A DNA stretch of 64,000 nucleotides from an uncultured Rhodospirillales bacterium (lineage in GTDB: Bacteria > Pseudomonadota > Alphaproteobacteria > Acetobacterales > Acetobacteraceae), in contig CAILMF010000041.1 in NCBI GenBank assembly GCA_903835235.1, positions 7,733 through 71,732 on the forward strand, written 5' to 3'. Each line of letters starts with the position of its first letter. Position 1 is the stretch's first letter. This document shows, in pieces, positions 28,861 to 55,985 of this stretch. A model generated the notes under the pieces. The model ran no database searches. It saw only the letters and a program-made list of their open reading frames with translations, and was not told where the DNA came from. The translations under genes were made by a program, and so were the position numbers.

Positions 28861-30098
28861 ACATCTCGGGCCTCGGCCTCCACCGCCAGGGAGAGCAGCA
28901 ACCCCAGCGCGAACCAGGCCATGCGGTTGCCGAGATCGGTACTGACCATCACGGTCAGCGCCACCGGCAGGGTCAGCGCCGCCACCCGCGCGGCCCGCCC
29001 GGGGGCGACATGCCGGGCCTGGCGCAGCGCCAGCACCACCCCGCCGCCGAAGGCGCCGAGCCACAGCACCAGCCCGGGCAACCCGCCCTCCGCCAGGGCT
29101 TCCAGCGCATGGTTGTGCGGGTACATGCCGCGCCGTTCGCCGAAGCCGGCCGCCTGGGGGAAGCCGCCGGTGCCCAGGCCCAGCGGCGCCGCCTCCCCGC
29201 CCCAGCGCAGCGCCTCCCGCCACAGGATCGTCCGCGCCGGCGTGGCGGTGGTCGGCTCGCCGAACACCCGTTCCAGCGTGCGTAACCCGGCGGCGCCGCG
29301 CGGCGAGGCCAGCAGCAGCCCCAACCCGAGCAGCCCCAGGCCCAGCATGGCGCCGAACCAGCCCAGCGCCGCCAGCCAGCGCCCGCGCAGCGCCCAGAAC
29401 AGCGCCGGCGCGCCGGCCACGCCCAGCCCCGCCGCCAGCAAGGCCAGCCGCCCGCCCGGCACCAGCACCGCGGCCGCAAGCGCCAAGGTCAGCCCCAGCC
29501 AGGCCAGGCGCGCCAGCCCCCGCGCCTCCGCCACGCGCACCGCCGCCAGCCCGGCGGCGCAGGCAATGGCCAGCCCGGCCAGCTGGTACTGCACCCGCAC
29601 CAGCTCGGCATCGCCGCCGGCACCGCCCAGCACCACCTGGCGCGTCGCCACGCCCCAGGCGATGCCGCCACCGACCACCACCCCCACCACCAGCGTGGCG
29701 GTGCAGCAGCGCCGCAGCGCCGGGGCATCGGCGCCCACCAGCACGCCGGCCAGAAGCATCGAGGGCGCCAGCAGCACCAGGCCGGGCAGCTTCTCGGCCA
29801 GCACATCGTCCGAGGCGCTCCAGGCGCCGGCCAGCACCAGCCACAGTACCAGGGCCAGCGCCGCCGCCAGCGGCAGGGCCAGGCCGCGCGCCAGCCGCCA
29901 GCGCCGCACCAGCAGCAGCACCGCCAGGGAGGGCACCAGCGCGGCAAAGGCCAGCGCCGTCAGGTCGAAGGGCAGGCCGGCCAGGCCGGGGACGGATTTC
30001 AGCGCGCCGGCGAAGTGCATCACCGCGGCCAGCGCGCCGCTGCCCGCCGCCAGCACCGCGGCATCCGGCCGCCAGGCCGGTGCCGCCGCATTCACCAC
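28857..30098 (-). CDS. O-antigen ligase/polymerase family (Wzy_C) membrane protein
   Basis: Track ORF of 413 aa, polytopic. The periplasmic loop ...GLGTGGFPQAAGFGERRGMYPHNHALEALAEGGLPG matches the Wzy_C motif. GTG start at 30098 or 30095 (GTGA overlap with the wzz-like stop). Confidence 0.7.
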   Translation of the reverse strand: MVNAAAPAWRPDAAVLAAGSGALAAVMHFAGALKSVPGLAGLPFDLTALAFAALVPSLAVLLLVRRWRLARGLALPLAAALALVLWLVLAGAWSASDDVLAEKLPGLVLLAPSMLLAGVLVGADAPALRRCCTATLVVGVVVGGGIAWGVATRQVVLGGAGGDAELVRVQYQLAGLAIACAAGLAAVRVAEARGLARLAWLGLTLALAAAVLVPGGRLALLAAGLGVAGAPALFWALRGRWLAALGWFGAMLGLGLLGLGLLLASPRGAAGLRTLERVFGEPTTATPARTILWREALRWGGEAAPLGLGTGGFPQAAGFGERRGMYPHNHALEALAEGGLPGLVLWLGAFGGGVVLALRQARHVAPGRAARVAALTLPVALTVMVSTDLGNRMAWFALGLLLSLAVEAEARDV

Positions 30099-43958: not shown

Positions 43959-44152
43959 CGGGTCGGGCTGTCATAAATGAGCAATGCGCATTCGCTAATT
44001 CAGCAAAGAAACTGCCAAAAACAAATCATTAACATCGCGTTGATCGCTTGGTGAACGATCCGTAATAGCGCTCATCAACCTCCCGAAATACCCGGCACCG
44101 CCGTTCCGGCGGGGCCGCCGTATTGTCACGGGCACAGGCGGAGAGCGAAGCG

Positions 44153-46885
44153 ATGTCCTATACGCTGCAGATCCTGAGCTATTACGGCGAGAGCGGCATG
44201 CTCGGCGTGCAGACCGCGCCGATCATGGGCGCGATGATCGACCGGTTCGACGACCAGTACGCCAACACCATCAAGATCGCCGAGGGCGACACCTTCATCC
44301 CCGGCCCCTGGCTGGTCGGCGGCGCCGATCCCTCGCTGAACGCCCTGGTCGGCACCACCGCGCTCGGCCGCCCGGACATCGCCATCCTGAACGCCTTCGG
44401 CACCACCGTGTCGTCGCTCGGCAACCATGAGTTCGACCTCGGCTCCCCGGTGTTCCAGGGCGCCCTCGCCGCCTCCGGCAGCGGTGCCACCGGCTGGGCC
44501 GGCGCGCTGTTCCCCTACATCACCGGCAACATCAACGTCAGCGCCGACAGCTCGCTGCGCGGCCTGTCCGACAAGTCGCTCGGCGGCACCAGCACCAACA
44601 GCTACGCCGGCCTCGAGACCAGCGCGATCAAGGGCAAGATCGCCCCCTACGCGATCAAGACCATCAACGGCGAGAAGATCGGCTTCGTCGGCGCCACCAC
44701 CTACGAGCTGGCCAACAAGTCCTCGCCGAATGGCACCGTCACCGTGGGCGTCGCCAGCACCGCCGACAGCGTGAAGATCCCGGAACTGGCGGCGATCATC
44801 CAGGCTTCGATCAACACGCTGACCGCGGCCGGCGTCAACAAGATCATCATGGTCGACCAGCTGGACACGCTGAGCCGCAACCAGGCCCTGGCCCCGCTGC
44901 TGACCGGCGTGGACATCATGGTGGCCGGCGGTGGCCATGAGCGCCTGGGCGATGCGACCGACACCGCGGTGGGCTTCAACGGCCACGACGCCAACTTCGC
45001 CGGCGCCTTCCCGATCGTCACCGCCGGCGCCGACGGCAACACCACGCTGATCGTCACCACCGACACCGAGTTCAGCTATCTCGGCCGCCTGGTGGTGGAC
45101 TTCGATGCCAACGGCGTGATCGACCCGACCAGCCTCAACCCGGCGGTCAACGGCGCCTACGCCTCCACCGCGACCAACCTGCAGGCCGCCTACGGCACCA
45201 CCGCCAGCGCCGCCGACATCATCGCCGGCTCCACCATCGGCAGCCAGGTGCAGGGCATCACCAGCGCCATCAACAACGTGATCGTCGCCAAGGATTCCAA
45301 CATCTTCGGCTACACCAACGTCTACATCGAAGGCGACCGCGTCTATGGCCGCGCCCAGGAAGTCAACCTGGGCGACCTGACCGCCGACGCCAACCTGTGG
45401 AAGGCCGCCCAGGCCGTCGCCCCGGGCACGCTGATGGTCTCGCTGAAGAATGGTGGCGGCCTGCGCGCCTCCATCGGCTCGGTCGACGAGGATGGCGTGA
45501 AGACCGCGCCGATCGCCACCTCGGTGAAGCCGGCCGGTGGCATCAGCCAGCTCGACATCGAGAACGCGCTGCGCTTCGACAACAAGATGATGGTGGTGGA
45601 CTTCACCGCCCAGGGCCTGAAGAACGTGCTGGAATACGGCACGACGCTGGCGGCCGGCAATGGCGGCTTCGCCCAGATGGGCGGCGTCCGGGTTTCGGTG
45701 GACGCCACCAAGACCGCCGGCAACAAGGTGCGTGACATCGCCGTCATCGACCTCGACGGCAACGTCATCGCCCGCGTCTGGGAAAACGGCCAGCTCTCGG
45801 CCGATGCCCCCTCGGTGATCTCCATGGTGGTGCTGAACTTCACCGCCAACAACGGCGACGGCTACCCGATCAAGGCCAATGGCACCAACTTCCGCTACCT
45901 GAAGACCGACGGCACGCTCTCCGCCGCCGCCGACAAGTCGCTGGACCTGACCGCTGCCGCCGGCTTCACCAGCGCCGGCATCACCGCCGCCGACCTGGTC
46001 GGCGAGCAGCTGGTGTTCGAGCAGTACCTGCAGACCTTCCACGCCACCCCGGCCACCGCCTACGACGTGGCCGACACCACCAAGGCGAGCGACCTCCGCC
46101 TGCAGGACCTGGCGTTCCGCGCCAACACCGTGATGCAGGGCGAGGACTACGCCGGCACCACGCGCAACGACAGCCACACCGGCACCGCCGGCAACGACAG
46201 CCTGGCCGGTGGCCGCGGCAACGACTCGCTGGACGGCGGCCTGGGCAACGACAGCCTGAGCGGTGGCCTGGGCCGTGACACCCTGGCCGGCGGCAATGGC
46301 AACGACACGCTGCTGGCCGGCGATAGCAACGACAGCCTGGATGGCGGTCTCGGCAACGACGTGCTGAACGGCGATGCCGGCAACGACACGCTGCTTGGCG
46401 GTGCCGGGAACGACCAGCTGGCCGGCGGTACCGAGCACGACAGCCTCGACGGCGGTATCGGCAATGACAGCCTGACCGGCGGTGACGGCCGTGACACCCT
46501 GGTTGGCGGTGAGGGCGCTGATACGCTCGCCGGCGGCCTGGGCCGCGACATGCTGACCGGTGGCGCCGGTGCCGATGGCTTCGTGCTGATGGCCCAGACC
46601 GCCAACTACGACAATGTGACCGACTTCGTCAGCGGGGTGGACTTCCTGATCATCTCCGCCGCCGAGTTCGGTGCCGGCCTGTCCGCCGGGATGGACCTGT
46701 CCACCGGCGGCCATTTCGTGTCCGGTCTCCGCGCCACCGCGGCGACCGCCACCTTCCTGTACGACGCGACGACGGGTCGCCTGCAGTTCGACGCCGACGG
46801 CATCGGCGCCGGCGGGCGCCAGCTGATTGCCGTGCTGGATGGTCACCCGACCCTGGTCGCCAGCGACCTGCACGTCATCGCCTGA
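44153..46885 (+). CDS. secreted 5'-nucleotidase/metallophosphoesterase-like protein fused to an RTX Ca-binding repeat block and a T1SS-type C-terminal domain
   Basis: Track ORF 44123..46885 trimmed to ATG 44153, with GGAGAG upstream. No signal peptide. GDTFIPG and GNHEFD metallophosphatase motifs, followed by a 5'-nucleotidase C-domain-like region. 15 consecutive GGxGxDxLx nonapeptides. C-terminal DNVTDFVSGVDFLIIS...LQFDADG...DLHVIA. Confidence 0.85.
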   Translation: MSYTLQILSYYGESGMLGVQTAPIMGAMIDRFDDQYANTIKIAEGDTFIPGPWLVGGADPSLNALVGTTALGRPDIAILNAFGTTVSSLGNHEFDLGSPVFQGALAASGSGATGWAGALFPYITGNINVSADSSLRGLSDKSLGGTSTNSYAGLETSAIKGKIAPYAIKTINGEKIGFVGATTYELANKSSPNGTVTVGVASTADSVKIPELAAIIQASINTLTAAGVNKIIMVDQLDTLSRNQALAPLLTGVDIMVAGGGHERLGDATDTAVGFNGHDANFAGAFPIVTAGADGNTTLIVTTDTEFSYLGRLVVDFDANGVIDPTSLNPAVNGAYASTATNLQAAYGTTASAADIIAGSTIGSQVQGITSAINNVIVAKDSNIFGYTNVYIEGDRVYGRAQEVNLGDLTADANLWKAAQAVAPGTLMVSLKNGGGLRASIGSVDEDGVKTAPIATSVKPAGGISQLDIENALRFDNKMMVVDFTAQGLKNVLEYGTTLAAGNGGFAQMGGVRVSVDATKTAGNKVRDIAVIDLDGNVIARVWENGQLSADAPSVISMVVLNFTANNGDGYPIKANGTNFRYLKTDGTLSAAADKSLDLTAAAGFTSAGITAADLVGEQLVFEQYLQTFHATPATAYDVADTTKASDLRLQDLAFRANTVMQGEDYAGTTRNDSHTGTAGNDSLAGGRGNDSLDGGLGNDSLSGGLGRDTLAGGNGNDTLLAGDSNDSLDGGLGNDVLNGDAGNDTLLGGAGNDQLAGGTEHDSLDGGIGNDSLTGGDGRDTLVGGEGADTLAGGLGRDMLTGGAGADGFVLMAQTANYDNVTDFVSGVDFLIISAAEFGAGLSAGMDLSTGGHFVSGLRATAATATFLYDATTGRLQFDADGIGAGGRQLIAVLDGHPTLVASDLHVIA
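46181..46585 (+). repeat. 15 consecutive RTX nonapeptide repeats (coding, inside the exoprotein gene)
   Basis: GTAGNDSLA GGRGNDSLD GGLGNDSLS GGLGRDTLA GGNGNDTLL AGDSNDSLD GGLGNDVLN GDAGNDTLL GGAGNDQLA GGTEHDSLD GGIGNDSLT GGDGRDTLV GGEGADTLA GGLGRDMLT GGAGADGFV. Confidence 0.9.
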
Positions 46886-47654: not shown

Positions 47655-47747
47655 TTGGCGATTAGGTCAGTTTCACTGACCTCTTGGCTTTCTTGGACGT
47701 TTCCTCCCTAAACTCGGCGGTGCCCACAAGGCACCGCCTCTTTTTTT
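47655..47747 (+). ncRNA. candidate ~90-nt trans-acting sRNA with a single-stranded anti-Shine-Dalgarno-like UUCCUCCCUAA motif
   Basis: 5' hairpin AGGTCAGT-ttc-ACTGACCT (47664-47682). Unpaired linker CTTGGCTTTCTTGGACGTTTCCTCCCTAAACT. Textbook intrinsic terminator at the 3' end. No credible ORF. The 5' end is inferred from the promoter guess only. Confidence 0.4.
47716..47747 (+). terminator. Rho-independent terminator (GGCGGTGCC-cacaa-GGCACCGCC followed by TCTTTTTTT)
   Basis: Read directly. It is the only hairpin in the window followed by a clean U-tract, and it is not preceded by any + strand protein gene. Confidence 0.8.
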
Positions 47748-47876
47748 GCCTGCGCAGGGAGGCGCGCTGCGGAAACACACTGACATATTGCGGCAGGCGC
47801 GGTCAAGACGACATAAAGTGTCGTGCCAGCCTCGGTTACCGCCAGAAGCTCGACAATCCTGAATTCGTGCCGCCGC

Positions 47877-49130
47877 TCAGCGCTGTCCCGCCGGCAGCCG
47901 CACCGTCGTCAGCACCGCGGCCCCGACGCCCAGGAAGACCAGCACCGTGGCCATGCCGGCGCGCTGGCTCTGGGTTGCCGCCGTCACCACGGCCAGCACG
48001 GCCGGGCCGAAGAAGCCGGTGACCCGTCCGCTGAGCGCGAACAGCCCGAAATGCGCCGCCGCCTCGCCCGCCGGCGCCAGGCGCGCCATCAGCGTGCGGC
48101 TGGCCGCCTGGGCCGGCCCCATGAAGATGCCGAGCGCGAGCGCCAGCGCCCAGAAGGCCGGCTTGCCGGAAACCACCAGCAGCCCGCCGCCGATCAGCGT
48201 GATGGCGGCCAGCGAGACCAGCACCGTGCGCTTGCTGCCGAAGCGGTCCTCCACCAGGCCGAAGCCGGCGGCGCCCAGCCCGGCCGTCACGTTCAGCGCA
48301 ATGCCGAACATGATCACCTCGTCCACCGTCATGCCGAAGACCCCGGCGGCGAAGATGGCGCCGAAGGCGAACAGCGTGTTCAAGCCATCGGTGTAGAACA
48401 GCCGGGCGAGCAGGAAGCGCGCCAGCACCGGCTGCCGCGGCAGCCCCTTCAGCACCCGCCAGGTTTCGCTGAGGCCAGCCCGCGCCGCCGCCCACCAACT
48501 GGGGCGGTCGCCGGCCGGGTCCGGCATGGCCAGCAGCACCGGCCAGCAGAACAGCGTCACCCAGGCGGCGCACAGCAGCGCGGTGGCGCGGACATGCTCG
48601 GCATTGGCGCGGTCCAGCCCGAACAGCGCGGGGTTCGGCTGCACCAGCAGGAACAGGCACAGCAGCAGGCAGACCAGGCCGCCGGCATAGCCCAGCCCCC
48701 AGGCCAGGCCACTCACCCGCCCCAGCTTTTCCGGCGGCGCCAGCCCCGGCAGCAGCGCGTTGTAGAACACCGTCGCCAGCTCGAACGCCACCGTCGCCAC
48801 GCCGACGCAGACCAGCGCCCACAACGCAAACTCCGGCTTCGGCTCGGCGAACCAGATGCCGGCGGTGAACACCACCATGACGCAGGTGCACAATGCCAGC
48901 ATGAAGCGCCGCCGCCCGCCGGCATCCGCAACCGCGCCCAGCGCCGGGGAAAGCAGCGCGATGGCGATGCCGGCGCAGGTCTGCATCCAGCCCCATTGCG
49001 CCTGGCCGGTCGCCGGGTCCGCCGCGATGCCCTGGGTGAAGTAGGCGGCGATGACGAAGGTGGAGACCACCGTGGGGAAGGCGGAGTTCGCCCAGTCGTA
49101 GAAGGCCCAGGCCCATGCCTTGCGGTGCAT
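47877..49130 (-). CDS. MFS transporter, UMF1/Atg22-like family
   Basis: Track ORF of 417 aa. WAFYDWANSAFPTVVSTFVIAAYF at the N-terminus is characteristic of the UMF1 family. About 12 TM segments. Confidence 0.75.
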   Translation of the reverse strand: MHRKAWAWAFYDWANSAFPTVVSTFVIAAYFTQGIAADPATGQAQWGWMQTCAGIAIALLSPALGAVADAGGRRRFMLALCTCVMVVFTAGIWFAEPKPEFALWALVCVGVATVAFELATVFYNALLPGLAPPEKLGRVSGLAWGLGYAGGLVCLLLCLFLLVQPNPALFGLDRANAEHVRATALLCAAWVTLFCWPVLLAMPDPAGDRPSWWAAARAGLSETWRVLKGLPRQPVLARFLLARLFYTDGLNTLFAFGAIFAAGVFGMTVDEVIMFGIALNVTAGLGAAGFGLVEDRFGSKRTVLVSLAAITLIGGGLLVVSGKPAFWALALALGIFMGPAQAASRTLMARLAPAGEAAAHFGLFALSGRVTGFFGPAVLAVVTAATQSQRAGMATVLVFLGVGAAVLTTVRLPAGQR

Positions 49131-49134
49131 CGCC

Positions 49135-49806
49135 TCAGAACCCCAGGCGCAGCGCGCCGCCCTTTTCCAGCGCGCGCTGCCAGGCGGGCCGGGCGCGCAT
49201 CCGTTCCAGCCAGGCCCATAGCCTGGGGTGGCTGGCGGCGGTCAGCCCGCCACGCGCGGCGCTGGCCTCGGCCACGAAGATCATCTGCACGTCCGCCGCG
49301 CCGAAGCCCGCGCCGCTGAAATGCGCCGCCTCCGCCAGGGCCGCGTCCATGTAGGCCAGCTGGTCGCGGATCTGCCCTTCCACCCGCACGCGCAGCGGCA
49401 TCAGTGCCTTGCGGAGGATGGCGCGCACCGGCCAGGGCGCCTTGTCCGTCCGGTTCAGGATCAGCTTGACCAGCAGCGGCGTCATCGCGCTGCCCTCGGC
49501 GAAGTGCATCCAGTGCAGGTGCCGCACCCAGTCCGCACTGCCGCGCGCCGGGGCGAACTGCCCGCGCAGGTCATGGCGCTGCAGCAGGTACTCCAGGATC
49601 GCGCCGGATTCCGCCAGCGGCGCGATGCCGTCATCCTCCAGCACCGGCGACTTGCCCAGCGGATGCACCGCGCGCAGCGCCGCCGGCGCCGCCAGCGTGG
49701 CCGGGTCTCGCCGATAGGTCACGACCTCATAGGGCTGGCCCAACTCCTCCAGCAGCCACAGCACGCGGTGCGACCGCGAGTTTTCCAGGTGATGAACGCG
49801 AATCAT
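49135..49806 (-). CDS. glutathione S-transferase family protein
   Basis: Track ORF 49135..49971 trimmed to ATG 49806 (MIRVHHLENSRSHRVLWLLEELGQPYEVV...HPLGKSPVLEDDG...ESGAILEYL), giving 223 aa. Confidence 0.85.
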   Translation of the reverse strand: MIRVHHLENSRSHRVLWLLEELGQPYEVVTYRRDPATLAAPAALRAVHPLGKSPVLEDDGIAPLAESGAILEYLLQRHDLRGQFAPARGSADWVRHLHWMHFAEGSAMTPLLVKLILNRTDKAPWPVRAILRKALMPLRVRVEGQIRDQLAYMDAALAEAAHFSGAGFGAADVQMIFVAEASAARGGLTAASHPRLWAWLERMRARPAWQRALEKGGALRLGF

Positions 49807-49818
49807 CTCGGCCCCCTC

Positions 49819-49867
49819 GGCATTGCGCCCCGGCATCGCCCCCGGCAACGCCCGTGGCAACGCCCCT
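49819..49867. repeat. four tandem degenerate ~12-bp repeats (GGCAWYGCSCCY) just upstream of the GST start
   Basis: ggcattgcgcccc ggcatcgccccc ggcaacgcccgt ggcaacgcccct, read directly. Confidence 0.6.
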
Positions 49868-50098
49868 TGGGGTGCCGCCAGTCTGCCCGCATCACTATCA
49901 CGCCAGCCAGCGCAAAGCCCGTTCCACCAGCGCCGCGACCGCCCATGTCGGCAATTGTCGGGATCCATCAAGTTGTGTCGTGGCGATAGACAATGCTCGT
50001 TGGTTGTAGAGAAAGGTCATCCTTAACGCTTTCCGGTTGTACTCCCGCCCGCTGGGAACCTATCTGGAACCCGCGAAAGCCGATCCGGAGCCTGCGCC

Positions 50099-50452
50099 AT
50101 GCTCGTCACTGACCAATCTGAATGGACCGTCCTCGGCCAGCCGGCCGGTGACCGCCGCCGCTGGCGCAACGCCCAGGTGGCACCGCGGACCGAGATGCTG
50201 CCGGCCGGCCCGGCCAGCTTCGTCGCCCCGGGGCCGGACCTGGTGCAGCTTGCGCTGCGGGCCGATGAACGCCACAGCAGCCGCGAGGCGATCCTGGGCC
50301 TGGTCCTGGCCGTGCTGATGCTGCTGGCGGTTGGCCAGGGCTGGCTCTGGCCGGTGCTGGCCGGCGCCTTCGTGGCCGCGCCGGTCATCGGCATTGCGCT
50401 GGAAAGCTGGGACGCGCTGGCGGACTGGCGCCGGAAGCGCCGGCAGGGCTGA
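50099..50452 (+). CDS. hypothetical small membrane protein (117 aa, two predicted TM segments)
   Basis: Track ORF with GC-rich third codon positions. The hydrophobic pair ILGLVLAVLMLLAV / WPVLAGAFVAAPVIGIAL is followed by a basic tail. A hairpin lies downstream. No family recognised. Confidence 0.45.
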   Translation: MLVTDQSEWTVLGQPAGDRRRWRNAQVAPRTEMLPAGPASFVAPGPDLVQLALRADERHSSREAILGLVLAVLMLLAVGQGWLWPVLAGAFVAAPVIGIALESWDALADWRRKRRQG

Positions 50453-50464
50453 CCTGCCGCGCAG

Positions 50465-50488
50465 CCCGGCCACAGCCGGGATTCTTCT
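50465..50488 (+). terminator. short GC hairpin CCCGGC-caca-GCCGGG followed by ATTCTTCT
   Basis: Read directly. It separates the 50099 ORF from the cupin-4 operon. Confidence 0.35.
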
Positions 50489-50556
50489 GGTCCTGCCGGC
50501 TCTCGCCGCCGCTGCCGATGATTCCGCCAGCGCCGGGATTGCGCTAGCCTCGCCGA

Positions 50557-51777
50557 ATGATCTCCTCCCTGGCTGAACTGCTGGCGCCCGTCTCGCCGGA
50601 GCGCTTCTTCGCCGAATACCACGACCGCCAGCCGCTGCACGTGAAGGGCGGTGCCGCCCGCTTCGCCAGCGTGCTGTCCTGGCGCCAGCTGAACCGGCTG
50701 CTGGACATGACGCATATCTGGTCCGCCCAGTCGCTGAAGCTGGTGCTGGATGAAAAGCCGGTGCCGGCCGACCAGTATTGCGCCCCCGCCACCAGCCGCG
50801 ACAACGACCAGGTGATGCAGCCCGTCGCCGCCCGGGTGATGGACTGGGTCAAGCGCGGCGCCAGCCTGGCCTTGAACGACGTGGACAGCCTGACCCCTGG
50901 GATGGCCGCGGTTTCCGCCGCGCTGGAAGGTGCCGGCTTGGGCAAGGCCCAGGCCAATGTCTATGTCAGCTGGCAGGCGCACAAGGCCTTCCCCAGCCAC
51001 TTCGACACGCATGATGTCTGGGCGGTGCAGGTGGAGGGCGAGAAGGTCTGGAACATCTGGGAAGGCCGCGCCGACTGGCCCATCGCCAACCCGCTGTTCC
51101 GCAACCTGGGCCAGGCGCATCACGACCAGGCCAAGGGGAAGCTGCGGGAGAAGGTCACGCTGCAGGCCGGCGACCTGCTGTATCTGCCGCGCGGCTGGTA
51201 CCACGACGCGCTGTGCGAGGGGCCATCCACCATGCACATCGCCTATGGCGTGCACGCGCCGCTGGGCATGGATGTGATGAACATGCTGATGGAACGCGCG
51301 CTGTACGAGCCGATCTTCCGCCAGCCGCTGCCGCGCCAGGACGGCAGCGCCGCCGCCCGCTTCGCGCTGACCACCCGTGCCGGGCAACTGGGCCAGAAGC
51401 TGGCCGAACTGGCCCGCGACCCCAAGGTGATGGAGGTGCTGGAAGGCTTCGTCGCCGGCTTCCACTACCAGCGCGGCGGCATGGACGTGCTGGCAGCGCG
51501 CGGCCTGGCCCCCGCCGCCAACCCGGCCGCCGACACCGAGGCCCCAAGCTTCCGCGTGCTGGCGCCGGGGCTGAAGCCGGTGCGCCGCGGCGCCGACTGG
51601 GTGCTGAAGACCGCGACCGGCGCCGTGCCGCTGGCCCCGCCGGAGGCCGAGGCCGCCGCCTGGCTGCTCGGCCGCCCCGATGTCACCGAAGCCGAGCTGC
51701 GCCAGGCCCATCCCGGCGTCGATGCCGCGGCGTTGCTGCCCCGCCTGGTCGGCGCCGGCCTGCTGGTGGCGGCATGA
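50557..51777 (+). CDS. JmjC/cupin-4 family Fe(II)/2-oxoglutarate-type oxygenase (RoxA/YcfD-like fold)
   Basis: Track ORF of 406 aa with no signal peptide. SHFDTHDVWAVQVEGEKVWNIW (HxD), GDLLYLPRGWYHDA and STMHIAYG (distal His) match the cupin-4 pattern. C-terminal helical/winged-helix-like tail. Confidence 0.75.
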   Translation: MISSLAELLAPVSPERFFAEYHDRQPLHVKGGAARFASVLSWRQLNRLLDMTHIWSAQSLKLVLDEKPVPADQYCAPATSRDNDQVMQPVAARVMDWVKRGASLALNDVDSLTPGMAAVSAALEGAGLGKAQANVYVSWQAHKAFPSHFDTHDVWAVQVEGEKVWNIWEGRADWPIANPLFRNLGQAHHDQAKGKLREKVTLQAGDLLYLPRGWYHDALCEGPSTMHIAYGVHAPLGMDVMNMLMERALYEPIFRQPLPRQDGSAAARFALTTRAGQLGQKLAELARDPKVMEVLEGFVAGFHYQRGGMDVLAARGLAPAANPAADTEAPSFRVLAPGLKPVRRGADWVLKTATGAVPLAPPEAEAAAWLLGRPDVTEAELRQAHPGVDAAALLPRLVGAGLLVAA

Positions 51778-52265
51778 GGCGCGCCACCCTCGCCATGGCC
51801 TTCGCGTTGGCGGTGCTGGCCGCCCCGGTGCTGGCCCAGGGCAACGCTCCGGCCCTGGCTCCGGCAGCCGAGCCGTCGCCCGCGCCCGCCGAGGCCCCGC
51901 GTCCGGGCTTCGATTGCGTCGGTGCCGAGCAGATCGAGGATGATGCCTTCGCCATCGCCTTCGCGCGCGGGGCGGCCACCCTGGCCCCGGCGGCCGAGGG
52001 CGCGCTGGAAGCCGTCATGCTCCGCGCCCGCGCCGAGCCGACCCGCCAGCTCTGCATTCTCGGCCATGCCGGCCCGCAGGAAGGCGGCGCCACCGCCAAT
52101 ACCCGCCTGGCCGCCCGCCGCGCCGCCACCGTGGCGGAGGACCTGGCCAGGCGCGGCCTGCCGCGGGACCGCCTGCGGGCCGAGGTGCGGGTCGCCGCCT
52201 TCGCCCGCGCCGCCGCCATCACGGCCGGCCGCAGCGTCACCGTCGTGCTGCTGCCCGCGCCATGA
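51774..52265 (+). CDS. exported OmpA-C-like (peptidoglycan-binding) domain protein
   Basis: C-terminal part of track ORF 51213..52265, starting at ATG 51774 (ATGA overlap). Signal peptide MRRATLAMAFALAVLAAPVLAQG. FARGAATLAP...LCILGHAGPQEGGATANTRLAARRAATVAEDLARRGLPRDRL...RSVTVVLL resembles the OmpA_C core. Confidence 0.6.
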   Translation: MRRATLAMAFALAVLAAPVLAQGNAPALAPAAEPSPAPAEAPRPGFDCVGAEQIEDDAFAIAFARGAATLAPAAEGALEAVMLRARAEPTRQLCILGHAGPQEGGATANTRLAARRAATVAEDLARRGLPRDRLRAEVRVAAFARAAAITAGRSVTVVLLPAP

Positions 52266-53743
52266 CCCTTCGGAGCCTGCCGATGCCACGCCTGTTCCTC
52301 GCCCTGCTGCTGGCCCTGTCGCCCTTCGGCCCCGCTTCGGCGCAGGAGGCGCAGCCGGCGAGGGAGGCGGTGGTCGCCAACGACACCGAGCGGCTGATGC
52401 AGGAAATCTACCTCTACGTCGTGGGGGCCGCCGAGCCGGGCCGCGACCGCCTGGCCAATGCGGTGCTGCCGCCGCGCGCCACGCTGCGCATACCGCTGCC
52501 GCGCGGCCAGGCCTGCAATTATGAGGTGCGCGTCGTGTTCGACGATGGCGACGACGACCGCCGCCGCATCGATGTCTGCCGCACGCCGCGCGCGACCTTC
52601 GCGGATACCGGCCCGCGCCGCGACCTGGCGGTGGTCAACGACAGCGACGTGGAATTGCGCGAACTCTACCTCTGGCCGTCTGCCGCCCGGGCGGCGGATA
52701 CCGGGACGGATCGGTTGGGCACACGCACCGTGCCGGCCGGGGAAACCCTGCCGCTCCGGCTGCGCGGCACCGCCGAATGCGTCTTCGACCTGCGCGCCGT
52801 CTTCGCCGACGAGACCGAGGAGAAGCGCCAGCGCGTCGACCTCTGCCGCGTCCCGCGCCTGGCCTTCGGCGACCCTAGCCTGCCGGTGCGCGAGGCCAAT
52901 GTCAGCAACCGCGCCCGCTTCACGGTGCGGGAACTCTACGCGCGCGCCATGGGCCAGGAAGCCTGGGGCGCCGACCGCCTGGGCAGCGCCACGCTGGAGC
53001 CCCGCGCCGATTTCGGGCTGCGCATCCGCTCGCGCGATTGCCGCTTCGACCTGCGCGCTGTCTATGAGAACGAGCGCGAGGAGGTGCAGCCCGGCCTGGA
53101 CCTGTGCCGCGGCCAGCAGGTGGAACTGGCCGGGCCAGGCCCCGCGGTGCCCGGCGAACTCCGCCGCATGCTGCTGGTCAACGGCTATGGCCGCCCCATT
53201 GCCCAGGTCTTCCTGATCTCGCCGGACCCGGACGACTGGGGCGAGGACCAGCTCGGCGACGCCACGCTGGCGCCCGGCGCCCGGCAGGAGCTCAGCGTCA
53301 CCAGCGGCTGCCGGGTGGACCTGCGCATCGTCTTCGACAGCGACGCGGCCGAGGAGCGCCGCGGCATCGACCTCTGCGCCAACAGCCTGGTGGTGCTGCG
53401 CCCCGGCTGGACCGTGGCCGAGCAACTGGACAGCATCGAGCCACTGGCCACCCCGACGGCGACGCCGGAGACGGTGGTGCTGGGCGGCGTGCGGCTGCGC
53501 AACCGCTCCACGCTGCCGGTGGTGGAACTCTACGTCGCCCGGCCCGGCGCGCCGCCCGGCCGCGACCGGCTGGGCAGCGCCGTCATCCCCGCCGGCGGCG
53601 TGCTGGATTTCTCGCCCCCGGCCGAGCTTGGCCAGGGGGCGGACCGCTGCCGCGCCGACCTGACCGCGGTGTTCCGCGATGGCCGGGCGCTTCGCCTGCC
53701 CGCCTTCGACCTGTGTTCCGGCGAGGAGGTTCCGCTGCAATGA
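52262..53743 (+). CDS. exported protein built from five tandem ~80-aa repeats, each with two conserved cysteines (unknown family)
   Basis: Track ORF of 493 aa. ATGA overlap with the upstream stop. Signal peptide ...LFLALLLALSPFGPASAQE. See the repeat feature and the finding. Confidence 0.7.
   Translation: MTLRSLPMPRLFLALLLALSPFGPASAQEAQPAREAVVANDTERLMQEIYLYVVGAAEPGRDRLANAVLPPRATLRIPLPRGQACNYEVRVVFDDGDDDRRRIDVCRTPRATFADTGPRRDLAVVNDSDVELRELYLWPSAARAADTGTDRLGTRTVPAGETLPLRLRGTAECVFDLRAVFADETEEKRQRVDLCRVPRLAFGDPSLPVREANVSNRARFTVRELYARAMGQEAWGADRLGSATLEPRADFGLRIRSRDCRFDLRAVYENEREEVQPGLDLCRGQQVELAGPGPAVPGELRRMLLVNGYGRPIAQVFLISPDPDDWGEDQLGDATLAPGARQELSVTSGCRVDLRIVFDSDAAEERRGIDLCANSLVVLRPGWTVAEQLDSIEPLATPTATPETVVLGGVRLRNRSTLPVVELYVARPGAPPGRDRLGSAVIPAGGVLDFSPPAELGQGADRCRADLTAVFRDGRALRLPAFDLCSGEEVPLQ
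52364..53731 (+). repeat. five in-frame tandem domain repeats (coding)
   Basis: Repeat consensus read by eye: N.s...v.ELY..p....WG.DRLG...l.pG..l.l.l....C.FDLR.VF.d..ee.r..iDLC....v.f. Units are at about aa 35-113, 120-203, 209-289, 300-381 and 405-490. Confidence 0.75.
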
Positions 53744-54549
53744 GAATCCTGCTGCTCGCCACCCTGCTGCTGTTGGCGACCCTGCCGGTCCAGGCGCAGC
53801 CGGTGCCGCCCCCGGTCGCGGTGCCCGAGGCGATGCGCGGCACCTGGTTCCGCGGCGAATGCGACCGGCCGGAGCAGATGCTGCACCTGACCATGCGCAG
53901 CGCCGCCCGCGTGCCGGCGGCCGGTCCTGGCCGGCTGTTCCGCTTCGGCAGCTTCCGCCCGGTGGCGGATTGGCTGTTCGCCGCCGGCATTGGCCCGGAC
54001 GCCCCCCGCCTGCTGCTGCGCGGCACGCGGGATGCGCTGGACACCGCCGAACCCGACCCCAAGCTGCGTGACGACCGCCTGCCCGGCGATACGCCGCCGC
54101 TGGCCTGGCACCGCTGCCCGCAGCCGCCGCTGGCCCTGGTGCTGCAGCACGCCGAGGGCATCGCCTTCATGGCAGCGCTGGAACAGGTGGAAGCCGCCTG
54201 CACCGCCGCCGTGCCCGGCTGCCTGGAGGCGATTCGCCGCCAGGGTGACGTCAACGACGATGGCGCGCTTTCCCTGGCCGAGCTGGCCCGGCTGCTGCGC
54301 GGTGCCGCCTGGGCCCTGGCGGTGCAGCAGGGGGCGGATTCCGCCACGTTGCTGGCCGGCGCGGTGACCCAGGCCGAACAGGCCCGCAACCTGGCGCGAC
54401 TGCTGCTGGACAGCCTGGACTACGACGCCGACGGCCGGATATCCGCCGCCGAAATGGCACAGGACCGGCTGCGCCTGAGCCAGGCTCCCGGCGCCCAGGG
54501 CGGCACGCCGTTGCCGTTGCCGGCGCTGCGCTCCTTGCTGGGCAGGTAG
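53740..54549 (+). CDS. exported protein with two canonical EF-hand Ca-binding loops
   Basis: C-terminal part of track ORF 53104..54549, starting at ATG 53740 (ATGA overlap). Signal peptide MRILLLATLLLLATLPVQAQP. EF loops DVNDDGALSLAE (aa 170-181) and DYDADGRISAAE (aa 227-238). Confidence 0.7.
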   Translation: MRILLLATLLLLATLPVQAQPVPPPVAVPEAMRGTWFRGECDRPEQMLHLTMRSAARVPAAGPGRLFRFGSFRPVADWLFAAGIGPDAPRLLLRGTRDALDTAEPDPKLRDDRLPGDTPPLAWHRCPQPPLALVLQHAEGIAFMAALEQVEAACTAAVPGCLEAIRRQGDVNDDGALSLAELARLLRGAAWALAVQQGADSATLLAGAVTQAEQARNLARLLLDSLDYDADGRISAAEMAQDRLRLSQAPGAQGGTPLPLPALRSLLGR

Positions 54550-54573: not shown

Positions 54574-55473
54574 CTACTCCGCCGCCTGCTTGGCCGGCTG
54601 CGTCCCGGGCTTCCTGATCCGCAGCCGCCGGATGCGCCGCGGGTCGGCCTCCAGCACGCGGAACTCCAGGCCGGAACCGTGGCTGACCAACTCGCCCTTG
54701 GCCGGCACGCGCCCCGCGAGCGTGAACACCAGCCCGCCGACGGTGTCGATATCGGCCGCGCGCTCATCCTCGGTCAGCACCGGGCCCAGCAGCGCCTCGA
54801 AATCCTCGACCGGCGTGCGGGCATCCAGCTCGATCGTGCCGTCCGGTTTCTCCACCATGTGCGGCGGGCCGTCCTCGTCATGCTCGTCCGAGATGTCGCC
54901 GACGATGGTCTCGACCAGATCCTCGATGGTGATCAGCCCGTCGATCCCGCCATACTCGTCCACCACCAGCGCCATGTGCATGCGCGCCTGGCGCATCTGC
55001 AGCAGCAGGTCCAGCACCGGCACGGCGGTGACCACGAACAGCGGCTTGCGCAATATGCCCGTGAGGGAAAACGGCCCCTCCCGCCCGATGGCGGCAAACA
55101 CGTCCTTGATGTGGACCATGCCGACCATCTCATCCAATTGCCCGCGATAGACCGGGTAGCGGCTATGGCCCTCGCGCTGCATCAGCCGCGTGGTCTGCTC
55201 CAGCGAGAAGTCTTCCGAGATGGCAATGATGTCGGCGCGCGGCACCATCACGTCATAGGCGGTCTTGCCGCGCAGCTTCAGCACGTTGCCGAGCAGCGCG
55301 CGTTCCTGGTCGTCCAGGTCGGTTTCCTCGCCCAGCGCGGTGCCGTGGCGCTGCGGGCCGTCCTGCTCCTCGATCAGCTCTTCCATGCGGTCGCGGACGC
55401 TCTCGGCCTCGCGCCGACGCATCAGCCCCTGCAAGCGCCACAGCAGCTTGCCGCGTTCGGCGGAACTGCTCAT
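54574..55473 (-). CDS. corC: CorC/HlyC-family protein (CBS pair plus CorC_HlyC transporter-associated domain)
   Basis: Track ORF 54574..55503 trimmed to ATG 55473 (ATGA overlap with the ybeY stop). DVMVPRADIIAI...GHSRYPVY...VGMVHIKD...VVDEYGGIDGLITIEDLVETIVGDI. Confidence 0.9.
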   Translation of the reverse strand: MSSSAERGKLLWRLQGLMRRREAESVRDRMEELIEEQDGPQRHGTALGEETDLDDQERALLGNVLKLRGKTAYDVMVPRADIIAISEDFSLEQTTRLMQREGHSRYPVYRGQLDEMVGMVHIKDVFAAIGREGPFSLTGILRKPLFVVTAVPVLDLLLQMRQARMHMALVVDEYGGIDGLITIEDLVETIVGDISDEHDEDGPPHMVEKPDGTIELDARTPVEDFEALLGPVLTEDERAADIDTVGGLVFTLAGRVPAKGELVSHGSGLEFRVLEADPRRIRRLRIRKPGTQPAKQAAE

Positions 55474-55985
55474 GCCGCCAGCCGCCCGACCGGCGCCTTC
55501 CACGGGTTGGGCAGCCTGAGCCGCGCCATGATCCGCGCCTCCGCCTGCTCCATCACCCGGGCCTCGCCGGCCAGCAGGTGGTCATGGCCCAGCAGGTGCA
55601 GCGTGCCATGCGCCACCAGATGGGCGAAATGCGCCTCCAGCCGGCGGCCAGCCGCCAGGGCTTCCCGCCGCACCACGCCCAGCGCCAGGGCGATATCGCC
55701 CAGGTGGTCCCCGTAGTCGTTGGGGAAGCTCAGCACATTGGTGGGTTTTTCCTTGCCGCGATGCTCGCCGTTCAGCCGCTTCAGCGCGCGGTCATCGGTC
55801 AGCAGCACCGTCACGGCGCCCTCGTACCCCTCGACCGCCAGGGTGGCGGCGACGGCACGGCGGGCCAGCATCTCGGCCCGCGGCAGCAGCCGGCGCCAGG
55901 CGGCGTCGGCAACAATAACCTCAGTCCCAACGACCGCGGGCGCCAAGCCCTGCCAGCCGTCGGGACGACTACTTCCCGGTTCCAT
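55470..55985 (-). CDS. ybeY: rRNA maturation endoribonuclease YbeY
   Basis: Track ORF 55470..56048 trimmed to ATG 55985. TNVLSFP and the zinc motif HLVAHGTLHLLGHDH. Confidence 0.9.
   Translation of the reverse strand: MEPGSSRPDGWQGLAPAVVGTEVIVADAAWRRLLPRAEMLARRAVAATLAVEGYEGAVTVLLTDDRALKRLNGEHRGKEKPTNVLSFPNDYGDHLGDIALALGVVRREALAAGRRLEAHFAHLVAHGTLHLLGHDHLLAGEARVMEQAEARIMARLRLPNPWKAPVGRLAA

Follow-up and report, generated by a model that had tools for sequence, protein, structure and literature searches.

A probably composite operon of Acetobacteraceae in which a divergent ROX-like JmjC oxygenase is paired with an exported OmpA-like protein

Four co-directional genes located at positions 50557-54549 (+ strand) of the stretch of DNA analysed here form a real operon, which encodes, in this order, a JmjC/cupin-4 oxygenase of the 2-oxoglutarate (2OG)/Fe(II)-dependent type, an exported OmpA-like protein, an exported repeat protein and an exported EF-hand protein. 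The whole stretch, called the window in what follows, comprises 64,000 nucleotides of an uncultured Rhodospirillales bacterium placed in the Acetobacteraceae (assembly GCA_903835235.1, contig CAILMF010000041.1, positions 7,733 to 71,732 of the forward strand). In all probability this operon is a composite, in the sense that two gene pairs conserved separately from each other, referred to here as module A (the JmjC and OmpA-like genes) and module B (the repeat and EF-hand genes), have been joined in one lineage.

The evidence for module A comes from a genome scan with the JmjC protein as the anchor and one genome per species, which yielded 213 relatives; the best 80 loci, all of them from Acetobacteraceae, were analysed, and their neighbourhoods were defined by tblastn of the window proteins together with public gene calls. 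Immediately 3' of the JmjC gene, 78 of the 80 loci carry the OmpA-like gene, and in the other two the contig breaks off just behind the JmjC gene, which means that the OmpA-like protein is the constant partner of the JmjC enzyme at every locus that continues (78 of 78). The junctions themselves are tight, with an overlap of 4 nt in 61 of these 78 loci and of 1 nt in another 15. From the opposite side, the named OmpA-like homologues all share a contig with a JmjC homologue (in Craurococcus roseus and Siccirubricoccus deserti the two locus tags are consecutive), and the 94 OmpA-like homologues that were detected all fall within the clade of the JmjC family, a family that is itself restricted to one clade of Acetobacteraceae. 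The genes 3' of the pair differ by genus, such as an alanine racemase-like gene in Crenalkalicoccus or cysG in Sabulicella. Judging from gene order and overlaps, the JmjC and OmpA-like genes are thus a strictly conserved pair of the Roseomonas-group Acetobacteraceae, predicted to be translationally coupled, and this coupling is not singled out in the initial annotation of the window.

On the 5' side, just upstream of the JmjC gene, 66 of the 80 loci (L005-L080) carry a divergent gene for an NAD-specific glutamate dehydrogenase (Bac_GDH, around 1500 aa), usually at a distance of 90-830 nt (an example is L085:5343-9863, - strand). It is absent from the corresponding region of the window (49135-50556), which in the window's clade is occupied by a glutathione S-transferase (GST) gene and a 117-aa membrane open reading frame (ORF). 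A regulatory or metabolic link between a 2OG-producing dehydrogenase and the 2OG-dependent oxygenase beside it is possible.

Module B has a distribution of its own, and the repeat loci outside the JmjC scan were reached by exact-protein look-ups. As far as sequence comparison tells, it is composed of a repeat protein of four or five units, usually together with a periplasmic EF-hand protein whose gene is translationally coupled to that of the repeat protein. A repeat gene followed, with a 4-nt overlap, by an EF-hand orthologue of 270-310 aa is found in Belnapia mucosa, Teichococcus cervicalis and Crenalkalicoccus roseus, and the same overlapped pair is present in Roseomonas sp. OT10 and two further genomes, with flanks unrelated to module A; the 4-nt overlap is conserved in L081-L083, L086-L089, L091 and L092. 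The commonest site of the pair outside the JmjC locus is divergent from tctCBA (tripartite tricarboxylate transporter), an arrangement seen in four genomes (L082, L088, L089 and L091). In Crenalkalicoccus both modules are carried by one contig, at separate loci around 60 kb apart, and in Siccirubricoccus phaeus the repeat gene occurs without the EF-hand gene.

The places where the modules meet are few. The repeat gene follows the JmjC/OmpA-like pair in 13 of 78 loci and is not adjacent to it in the remaining 65, and the EF-hand gene follows in one of the 80 scanned loci, being adjacent only in the genus-level clade of the window. The full quartet with its corC-miaB flank is likewise confined to that clade (L001, L086, L087, L092 and L093), which extends as far as a member with 76% identity in the repeat protein, and the identical OmpA-like protein, with the genes around it arranged in the same way, is carried by contigs from metagenome assemblies. 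Twelve loci of Rhodovarius, Rubritepida, Roseococcus and Sediminicoccus show a three-gene version, made up of the JmjC gene, the OmpA-like gene and a four-unit repeat gene, spaced in Roseococcus and Sediminicoccus by 4-nt overlaps or gaps of 2-22 nt. No EF-hand gene was found in these 12 loci, even at an E-value of 0.01 with four queries. Two ORFs 3' of the repeat gene were considered: the one in L054, on the + strand, has no Pfam match, is of low complexity and is overlapped by minus-strand ORFs, so that it was not accepted as a gene, and the one in L033 has no EF-hand similarity, its weak COQ9 match (0.0041) being below the cut-off.

In a neighbour-joining tree of the JmjC proteins, the three-gene loci are well separated from the window's clade, and the tree of the repeat proteins recovers the same groups, which fits a single orthologous repeat gene that changed position. 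The JmjC and repeat families share the same restricted set of genera. The linkage of the repeat gene to module A would thus either have arisen twice or be ancestral and have been broken several times, and from these comparisons it appears recurrent but dispensable. The view that the quartet is one co-conserved unit is not upheld by these distributions, and the examination of gene-neighbourhood conservation that had been proposed beforehand turned out largely as expected if that view were wrong.

Regarding the layout of the operon, the four ORFs described in the initial annotation are all present on the + strand: the JmjC/cupin-4 oxygenase gene (50557-51777, 406 aa), the gene of the exported OmpA_C-like protein (51774-52265, 163 aa), that of the exported repeat protein (52262-53743, 493 aa, or 486 aa from Met8 at 52283) and that of the exported EF-hand protein (53740-54549, 269 aa). 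Each has a GC content at third codon positions of 0.91 and a lower one at position 2, which is the pattern of real genes in a genome of around 72% GC. Signal-peptide-like N-termini, judged by eye on the translations, are found in the OmpA-like, repeat and EF-hand proteins, and the JmjC protein is without one. The next gene downstream, corC (54574-55503), is convergent, as previously noted, and so are ybeY-phoH-miaB after it.

An ATGA start/stop overlap had been described at each of the three junctions, and the ATGA is indeed there in all cases (51774, 52262 and 53740), but the middle one may be a gap of 17 nt instead: in public gene calls the repeat gene starts at Met8 (52283), 17 nt past the OmpA-like stop, with a GGAG at 52272-52275, 7 nt before that start, and in one relative of the window's clade the corresponding gap is 44 nt. 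The OmpA-like/repeat junction is ambiguous in this respect, being compatible in sequence with either a 4-nt overlap or a 17-nt gap. Upstream, a GC hairpin with a T-rich tract (50465-50480, + strand), located past the end of the 117-aa ORF at 50099-50452, could weakly suggest a terminator that would set off the unit on its 5' side. Its stem consists of 6 bp, all of them GC, and with two such sites seen versus 1.3 expected and a fold z-score of -1.5 it is an unremarkable terminator-like match, so it was dropped as a sign of a discrete unit, against its earlier use as a boundary. What stands of the single, coupled unit proposed at first is therefore its compactness, the common direction of its genes and the same flanks throughout the window's clade, but not the hairpin, and not with certainty the middle overlap. 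In the Rfam scan, neither the operon nor its leader showed an RNA element.

The first protein of the operon is a cupin-4/JmjC oxygenase without signal peptide, as had been proposed. It matches Pfam JmjC_2 (PF08007) at 5.3e-22 (78.1 bits, versus a cut-off of 22 bits), Cupin_8 also being matched, and its best sequence matches in the PDB are Bacillus subtilis YxbC (4.7e-11, over residues 4-256, including all ligand motifs), NO66 (7e-11) and MINA53. The predicted iron ligands H148, D150 and H216 and the 2OG-binding K163 align to the residues of YxbC and are invariant in 11 genera. The first two form the HxD motif (H148-F-D150, 50998-51006, + strand), which aligns with HFD in YxbC, and H216 belongs to the invariant RGWYH (51190-51204, + strand), aligned with the YxbC His; the distal ligand is thus assigned to the His of LYLPRGWYH and not, as was first thought, to that of STMHIAYG. 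YxbC (PDB 1vrb, 7zcc) is the best match among solved structures and was deposited as a "putative asparaginyl hydroxylase", but it is an uncharacterised protein too and, with 341 aa, is without the C-terminal domain of around 80 aa present in the window's protein.

The similarity to the ribosomal oxygenases (ROX), namely E. coli RoxA/YcfD, Rhodothermus YcfD and human NO66 and MINA53, includes the JmjC_2/cupin-4 fold, the HxD...H triad, the basic 2OG residue and, as far as a low-confidence model shows, a helical stretch and then a small C-terminal domain behind the catalytic one. Nevertheless, the identity is just 14-19%, phmmer reaches Rhodothermus YcfD only at 6e-3, E. coli YcfD is absent from the PDB matches at an E-value of 0.01, there is no RoxA winged-helix Pfam match, and NCBIfam contains no family for the protein. 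Moreover, unlike the ROX enzymes, the family forms one Acetobacteraceae clade and is always coupled to an exported OmpA-like gene. The protein is treated here as a divergent ROX-like JmjC hydroxylase and, by its sequence matches, not as a RoxA orthologue. Its nearest relatives are found in uncultured Acetobacteraceae metagenome-assembled genomes (MAGs; 93-95% identity), followed by Belnapia, Siccirubricoccus and Crenalkalicoccus (around 75%).

An AlphaFold2 (AF2) model of the JmjC protein, built from an alignment of 11 sequences at least 69% identical, is poor overall, with a mean predicted local distance difference test score (pLDDT) of 54, and for this reason only its C-terminal domain and its coarse fold matches were used. 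Foldseek with this low-confidence model returns NO66, MINA53 and YcfD as full-length neighbours (down to 3e-8), and the order of its secondary structures fits the JmjC/helical/winged-helix layout of the ROX enzymes. The sole confident part (pLDDT 77-90) is the C-terminal domain of around 80 aa (51532-51774, + strand), with strands followed by three helices, which looks winged-helix-like and possibly has the topology of PqqD and the recognition elements (RREs) of peptides synthesised by ribosomes and modified after translation (RiPPs), given local Foldseek matches to McbB, ThcOx, PqqD and the PbtF RRE (E 0.05-1.1). Pfam and PDB-profile searches with this domain found nothing.

The OmpA-like protein was expected to have an OmpA-C-like peptidoglycan-binding core. 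The domain assignment holds, with Pfam OmpA (PF00691) at 1.5e-8 (35.4 bits, versus a cut-off of 27.2) and an alignable PDB match to YiaD at 8.8e-5, and so does half of the ligand site. In OmpA-like domains, an Asp (G-x-T/A-D) and an Arg (R-A) bind the diamino acid of the stem peptide. The RRA motif with its Arg is conserved across the alignment of 69 homologues, but the (T/A)D motif is without its canonical Asp, Gly100 aligning at a position that is variable in the family. Like YiaD, Pal and the Rv0899 C-domain, the protein shows the OmpA Pfam domain, the N..L(S/A)..RA..V motif that defines the fold and the Arg; unlike them, it has neither lipobox nor beta-barrel, its Asp is replaced, and it carries in addition two conserved Cys (C48 and C94) and, where the mature protein is predicted to begin, a conserved QPRPFxCxGAE motif. 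The homologues are typically of around 140 aa, each with a signal peptide. The OmpA-like partners of Muricoccus and some Roseomonas species bear a long Pro/Ala-rich C-terminal extension, with lengths of 200-330 aa (L066:11230-12219, L080:11233-11847).

The repeat protein consists of a signal peptide and five units of around 85 aa, at 52358-52609, 52610-52876, 52877-53149, 53150-53416 and 53474-53740 (+ strand), with two invariant Cys in each, in agreement with the five tandem Cys-pair repeats first recognised. Neither Pfam nor NCBIfam has a family for it, and single units have no Pfam match either. Unit 2 is modelled by AF2 with confidence (pLDDT 93.3) as a six-stranded beta-sandwich, whose Foldseek neighbours are generic beta-sandwiches (best 2mca, E 7e-3), with none at E <= 0.001. 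A profile of the five units collects 2855 protein-cluster representatives (at 50% identity), with 1-11 copies each; of ten sampled proteins, eight end in a Trypsin_2 (S1C) protease domain and one has an FGE-sulfatase domain. This two-Cys beta-sandwich is a widespread domain with no Pfam model, and a candidate for a new family.

As for the EF-hand protein, the two loops reported in it are confirmed: loop 1 (DVNDDGALSLAE, residues 170-181, 54247-54282, + strand) and loop 2 (DYDADGRISAAE, residues 227-238, 54418-54453, + strand) are both 12 residues long, with DxDxDG and a final Glu. Pfam EF-hand_5 matches at 27.5 bits, over its cut-off of 25.9, and EF-hand_7 at 23.8, under its cut-off of 30, the loop starts being 57 residues apart; no solved homologue was found in the PDB. 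The orthologues are 51% identical, with the four Cys and the loops conserved, and loop 2 is kept in the seven that were aligned (7/7), loop 1 being partly degenerate in some.

How can these proteins be related in function? The best overall explanation, which is preferred tentatively and with less than even confidence, is that of a composite operon in which the OmpA-like protein is the partner or substrate of the JmjC enzyme, and the repeat and EF-hand proteins are accessory. The JmjC enzyme would be a cytoplasmic protein or peptide hydroxylase, the OmpA-like protein would be hydroxylated by it in the cytoplasm before Sec export, and the repeat and EF-hand proteins would act as periplasmic accessories of the same envelope function, without being primary substrates; in the window's lineage module B lies directly 3' of module A, and in the second clade the repeat gene alone does. 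There is precedent for bacterial JmjC enzymes acting on a peptide encoded by a neighbouring gene, namely CzlI for curacozole, whose top structural homologue is YxbC (PMC11575548), and BipG/PbsQ for biphenomycins (PMC12707348, PMC12257519). Together with the strict coupling of module A, this precedent makes the OmpA-like protein the inferred partner and, among the neighbours, the most likely substrate, while the same coupling makes the repeat or EF-hand protein less likely to be an obligate one. By analogy, then, the OmpA-like protein may be the substrate, which is possible although, taken by itself, rather doubtful. The RiPP hydroxylases (CzlI, BipG/BpmG/PbsQ) resemble the present case in being bacterial JmjC enzymes that hydroxylate a product of their own cluster, but their substrates are short precursor peptides in multi-enzyme clusters, while here the neighbour is a folded, Sec-exported OmpA-like protein of around 140 aa, with no tailoring enzymes.

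Several points weigh against the OmpA-like protein being the substrate within a functional quartet. The adjacency of the repeat gene to module A in just 13 of 78 loci could mean that the link is historical; the characterised relatives nearest to the JmjC protein hydroxylate ribosomal proteins; and the hydroxylation of a Sec substrate prior to its export would be unusual. Furthermore, the 69-sequence alignment shows no conservation in the signal-peptide region of the OmpA-like family, so that recognition through a leader is not indicated, and the RRE-like reading of the C-terminal domain of the enzyme, which is possible, comes from weak local matches of a poor model. In its most detailed form, in which the JmjC enzyme would hydroxylate the OmpA-like pre-protein before Sec export, possibly docked through that RRE-like domain, and the product would act together with the repeat and EF-hand proteins, the proposal is unlikely to be right in all its parts.

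As the main rival explanation, the substrate of the JmjC protein would be a ribosomal or some other cytoplasmic protein, as it is for RoxA, NO66 and MINA53, and the linkage to genes of exported proteins would reflect shared regulation or inherited gene order and not a common pathway. This is somewhat unlikely. In its favour, both sequence and fold point to ROX enzymes as the best characterised relatives, the protein lacks an export signal, JGI annotations label its homologues as L16 Arg81 hydroxylase or MINA, and in 66 of 80 loci its gene is divergent from that of NAD-glutamate dehydrogenase, a cytoplasmic metabolic enzyme. On the other hand, the missing NCBIfam assignment and the distant or undetected YcfD proteins indicate that it is not a RoxA orthologue, a family restricted to one clade would be unusual for a core ribosome modifier, and without some functional tie it is difficult to account for an overlap of 4 or 1 nt between this gene and the OmpA-like one being kept in 76 of 78 loci. 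A ribosomal oxygenase with freely varying neighbours, which the initial annotation had considered as the finding that would count against it, is thus not what was encountered, in view of that constant neighbour and the lack of RoxA orthology.

Less probable still is the first proposal made for this operon, that the repeat or EF-hand protein is hydroxylated on its side chains before export, by analogy with AspH acting on epidermal growth factor (EGF) modules. The tight packing of the four genes in the window's clade, the linkage of the repeat gene to the JmjC/OmpA-like pair in two separate clades and the confinement of the JmjC and repeat families to the same genera would agree with it, but in 65 of 78 loci the repeat gene is not next to the pair, an adjacent EF-hand gene is seen in no clade but the window's, the 12 three-gene loci having none, and the repeat domain, with its 2855 clusters, extends well beyond the family, often on proteases. 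The likeness to AspH/EGF is limited to the general idea of a 2OG oxygenase accompanied by Ca-binding, disulfide-containing extracytoplasmic proteins. No Asp/Asn beta-hydroxylase Pfam match was obtained among the four proteins at E-values up to 1, which leaves the enzyme outside the AspH family; the AspH substrate is a six-Cys EGF module of around 40 aa, unlike the present two-Cys beta-sandwich of around 85 aa; and the Ca-binding loops are here on a separate protein from the repeats. The analogy accordingly has no basis in sequence or fold. A further alternative, highly improbable, is that the JmjC enzyme hydroxylates a non-protein envelope precursor, for instance the diamino acid of the peptidoglycan stem peptide, and that the Asp-less OmpA-like protein binds the modified wall. 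In its favour are the retention in the OmpA-like family of the RRA Arg but not of the ligand-binding Asp, the strict coupling of this gene to a cytoplasmic oxygenase, and the fact that JmjC enzymes (JMJD5, JMJD6 and JMJD7) hydroxylate Lys and Arg side chains. However, we know of no JmjC_2-family enzyme that acts on envelope precursors, and nothing in the sequence suggests muropeptide binding, so that this idea is a speculation from two observations.

Other features of the window deserve a brief mention. The 117-aa hydrophobic ORF between the GST and JmjC genes (50099-50452, + strand) is 46-78% identical within the window's clade and has one weaker match, in a Rubritepida MAG (L030, 39%), with no family assignment. 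A few kb 5' of the operon, at 44123-46885 (+ strand), an ORF of around 910-920 aa combines a 5'-nucleotidase C-terminal domain with HemolysinCabind (RTX Ca-binding), as listed in the gene table of contig L092, which is identical, and is another secreted Ca-binding protein. Rfam RF00519 (suhB/MmgR small RNA) matches at 47679-47753 (+ strand; 57.5 bits, E 3e-9), adjoining the 3' end of a major facilitator superfamily transporter gene (47877-49130, - strand), and the sole tRNA gene in the window is a tRNA-Ala (GGC) at 29379-29466 (- strand).

Literature searches on YxbC and on JmjC together with OmpA retrieved no description of such a system, in line with the statement in the initial annotation. 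The enzyme class is known, while its conserved pairing with an exported protein is uncharacterised. To our knowledge, the bacterial JmjC oxygenases with a known substrate are very few, comprising RoxA and a handful of RiPP tailoring enzymes. In this context, the JmjC and OmpA-like proteins offer a candidate enzyme/partner pair, coupled in every genome of the clade that was examined and present in cultivable Roseomonas, Belnapia and Roseococcus, and the two-Cys beta-sandwich unit of around 85 aa merits a family definition of its own. If the OmpA-like pre-protein were indeed hydroxylated before Sec export, the enzyme would be the first JmjC protein hydroxylase of bacteria to have a secreted substrate of the cell envelope, and protein hydroxylation would be extended to the bacterial envelope; if the OmpA-like partner were not the substrate, the locus would still mark a divergent branch of ROX-like enzymes.

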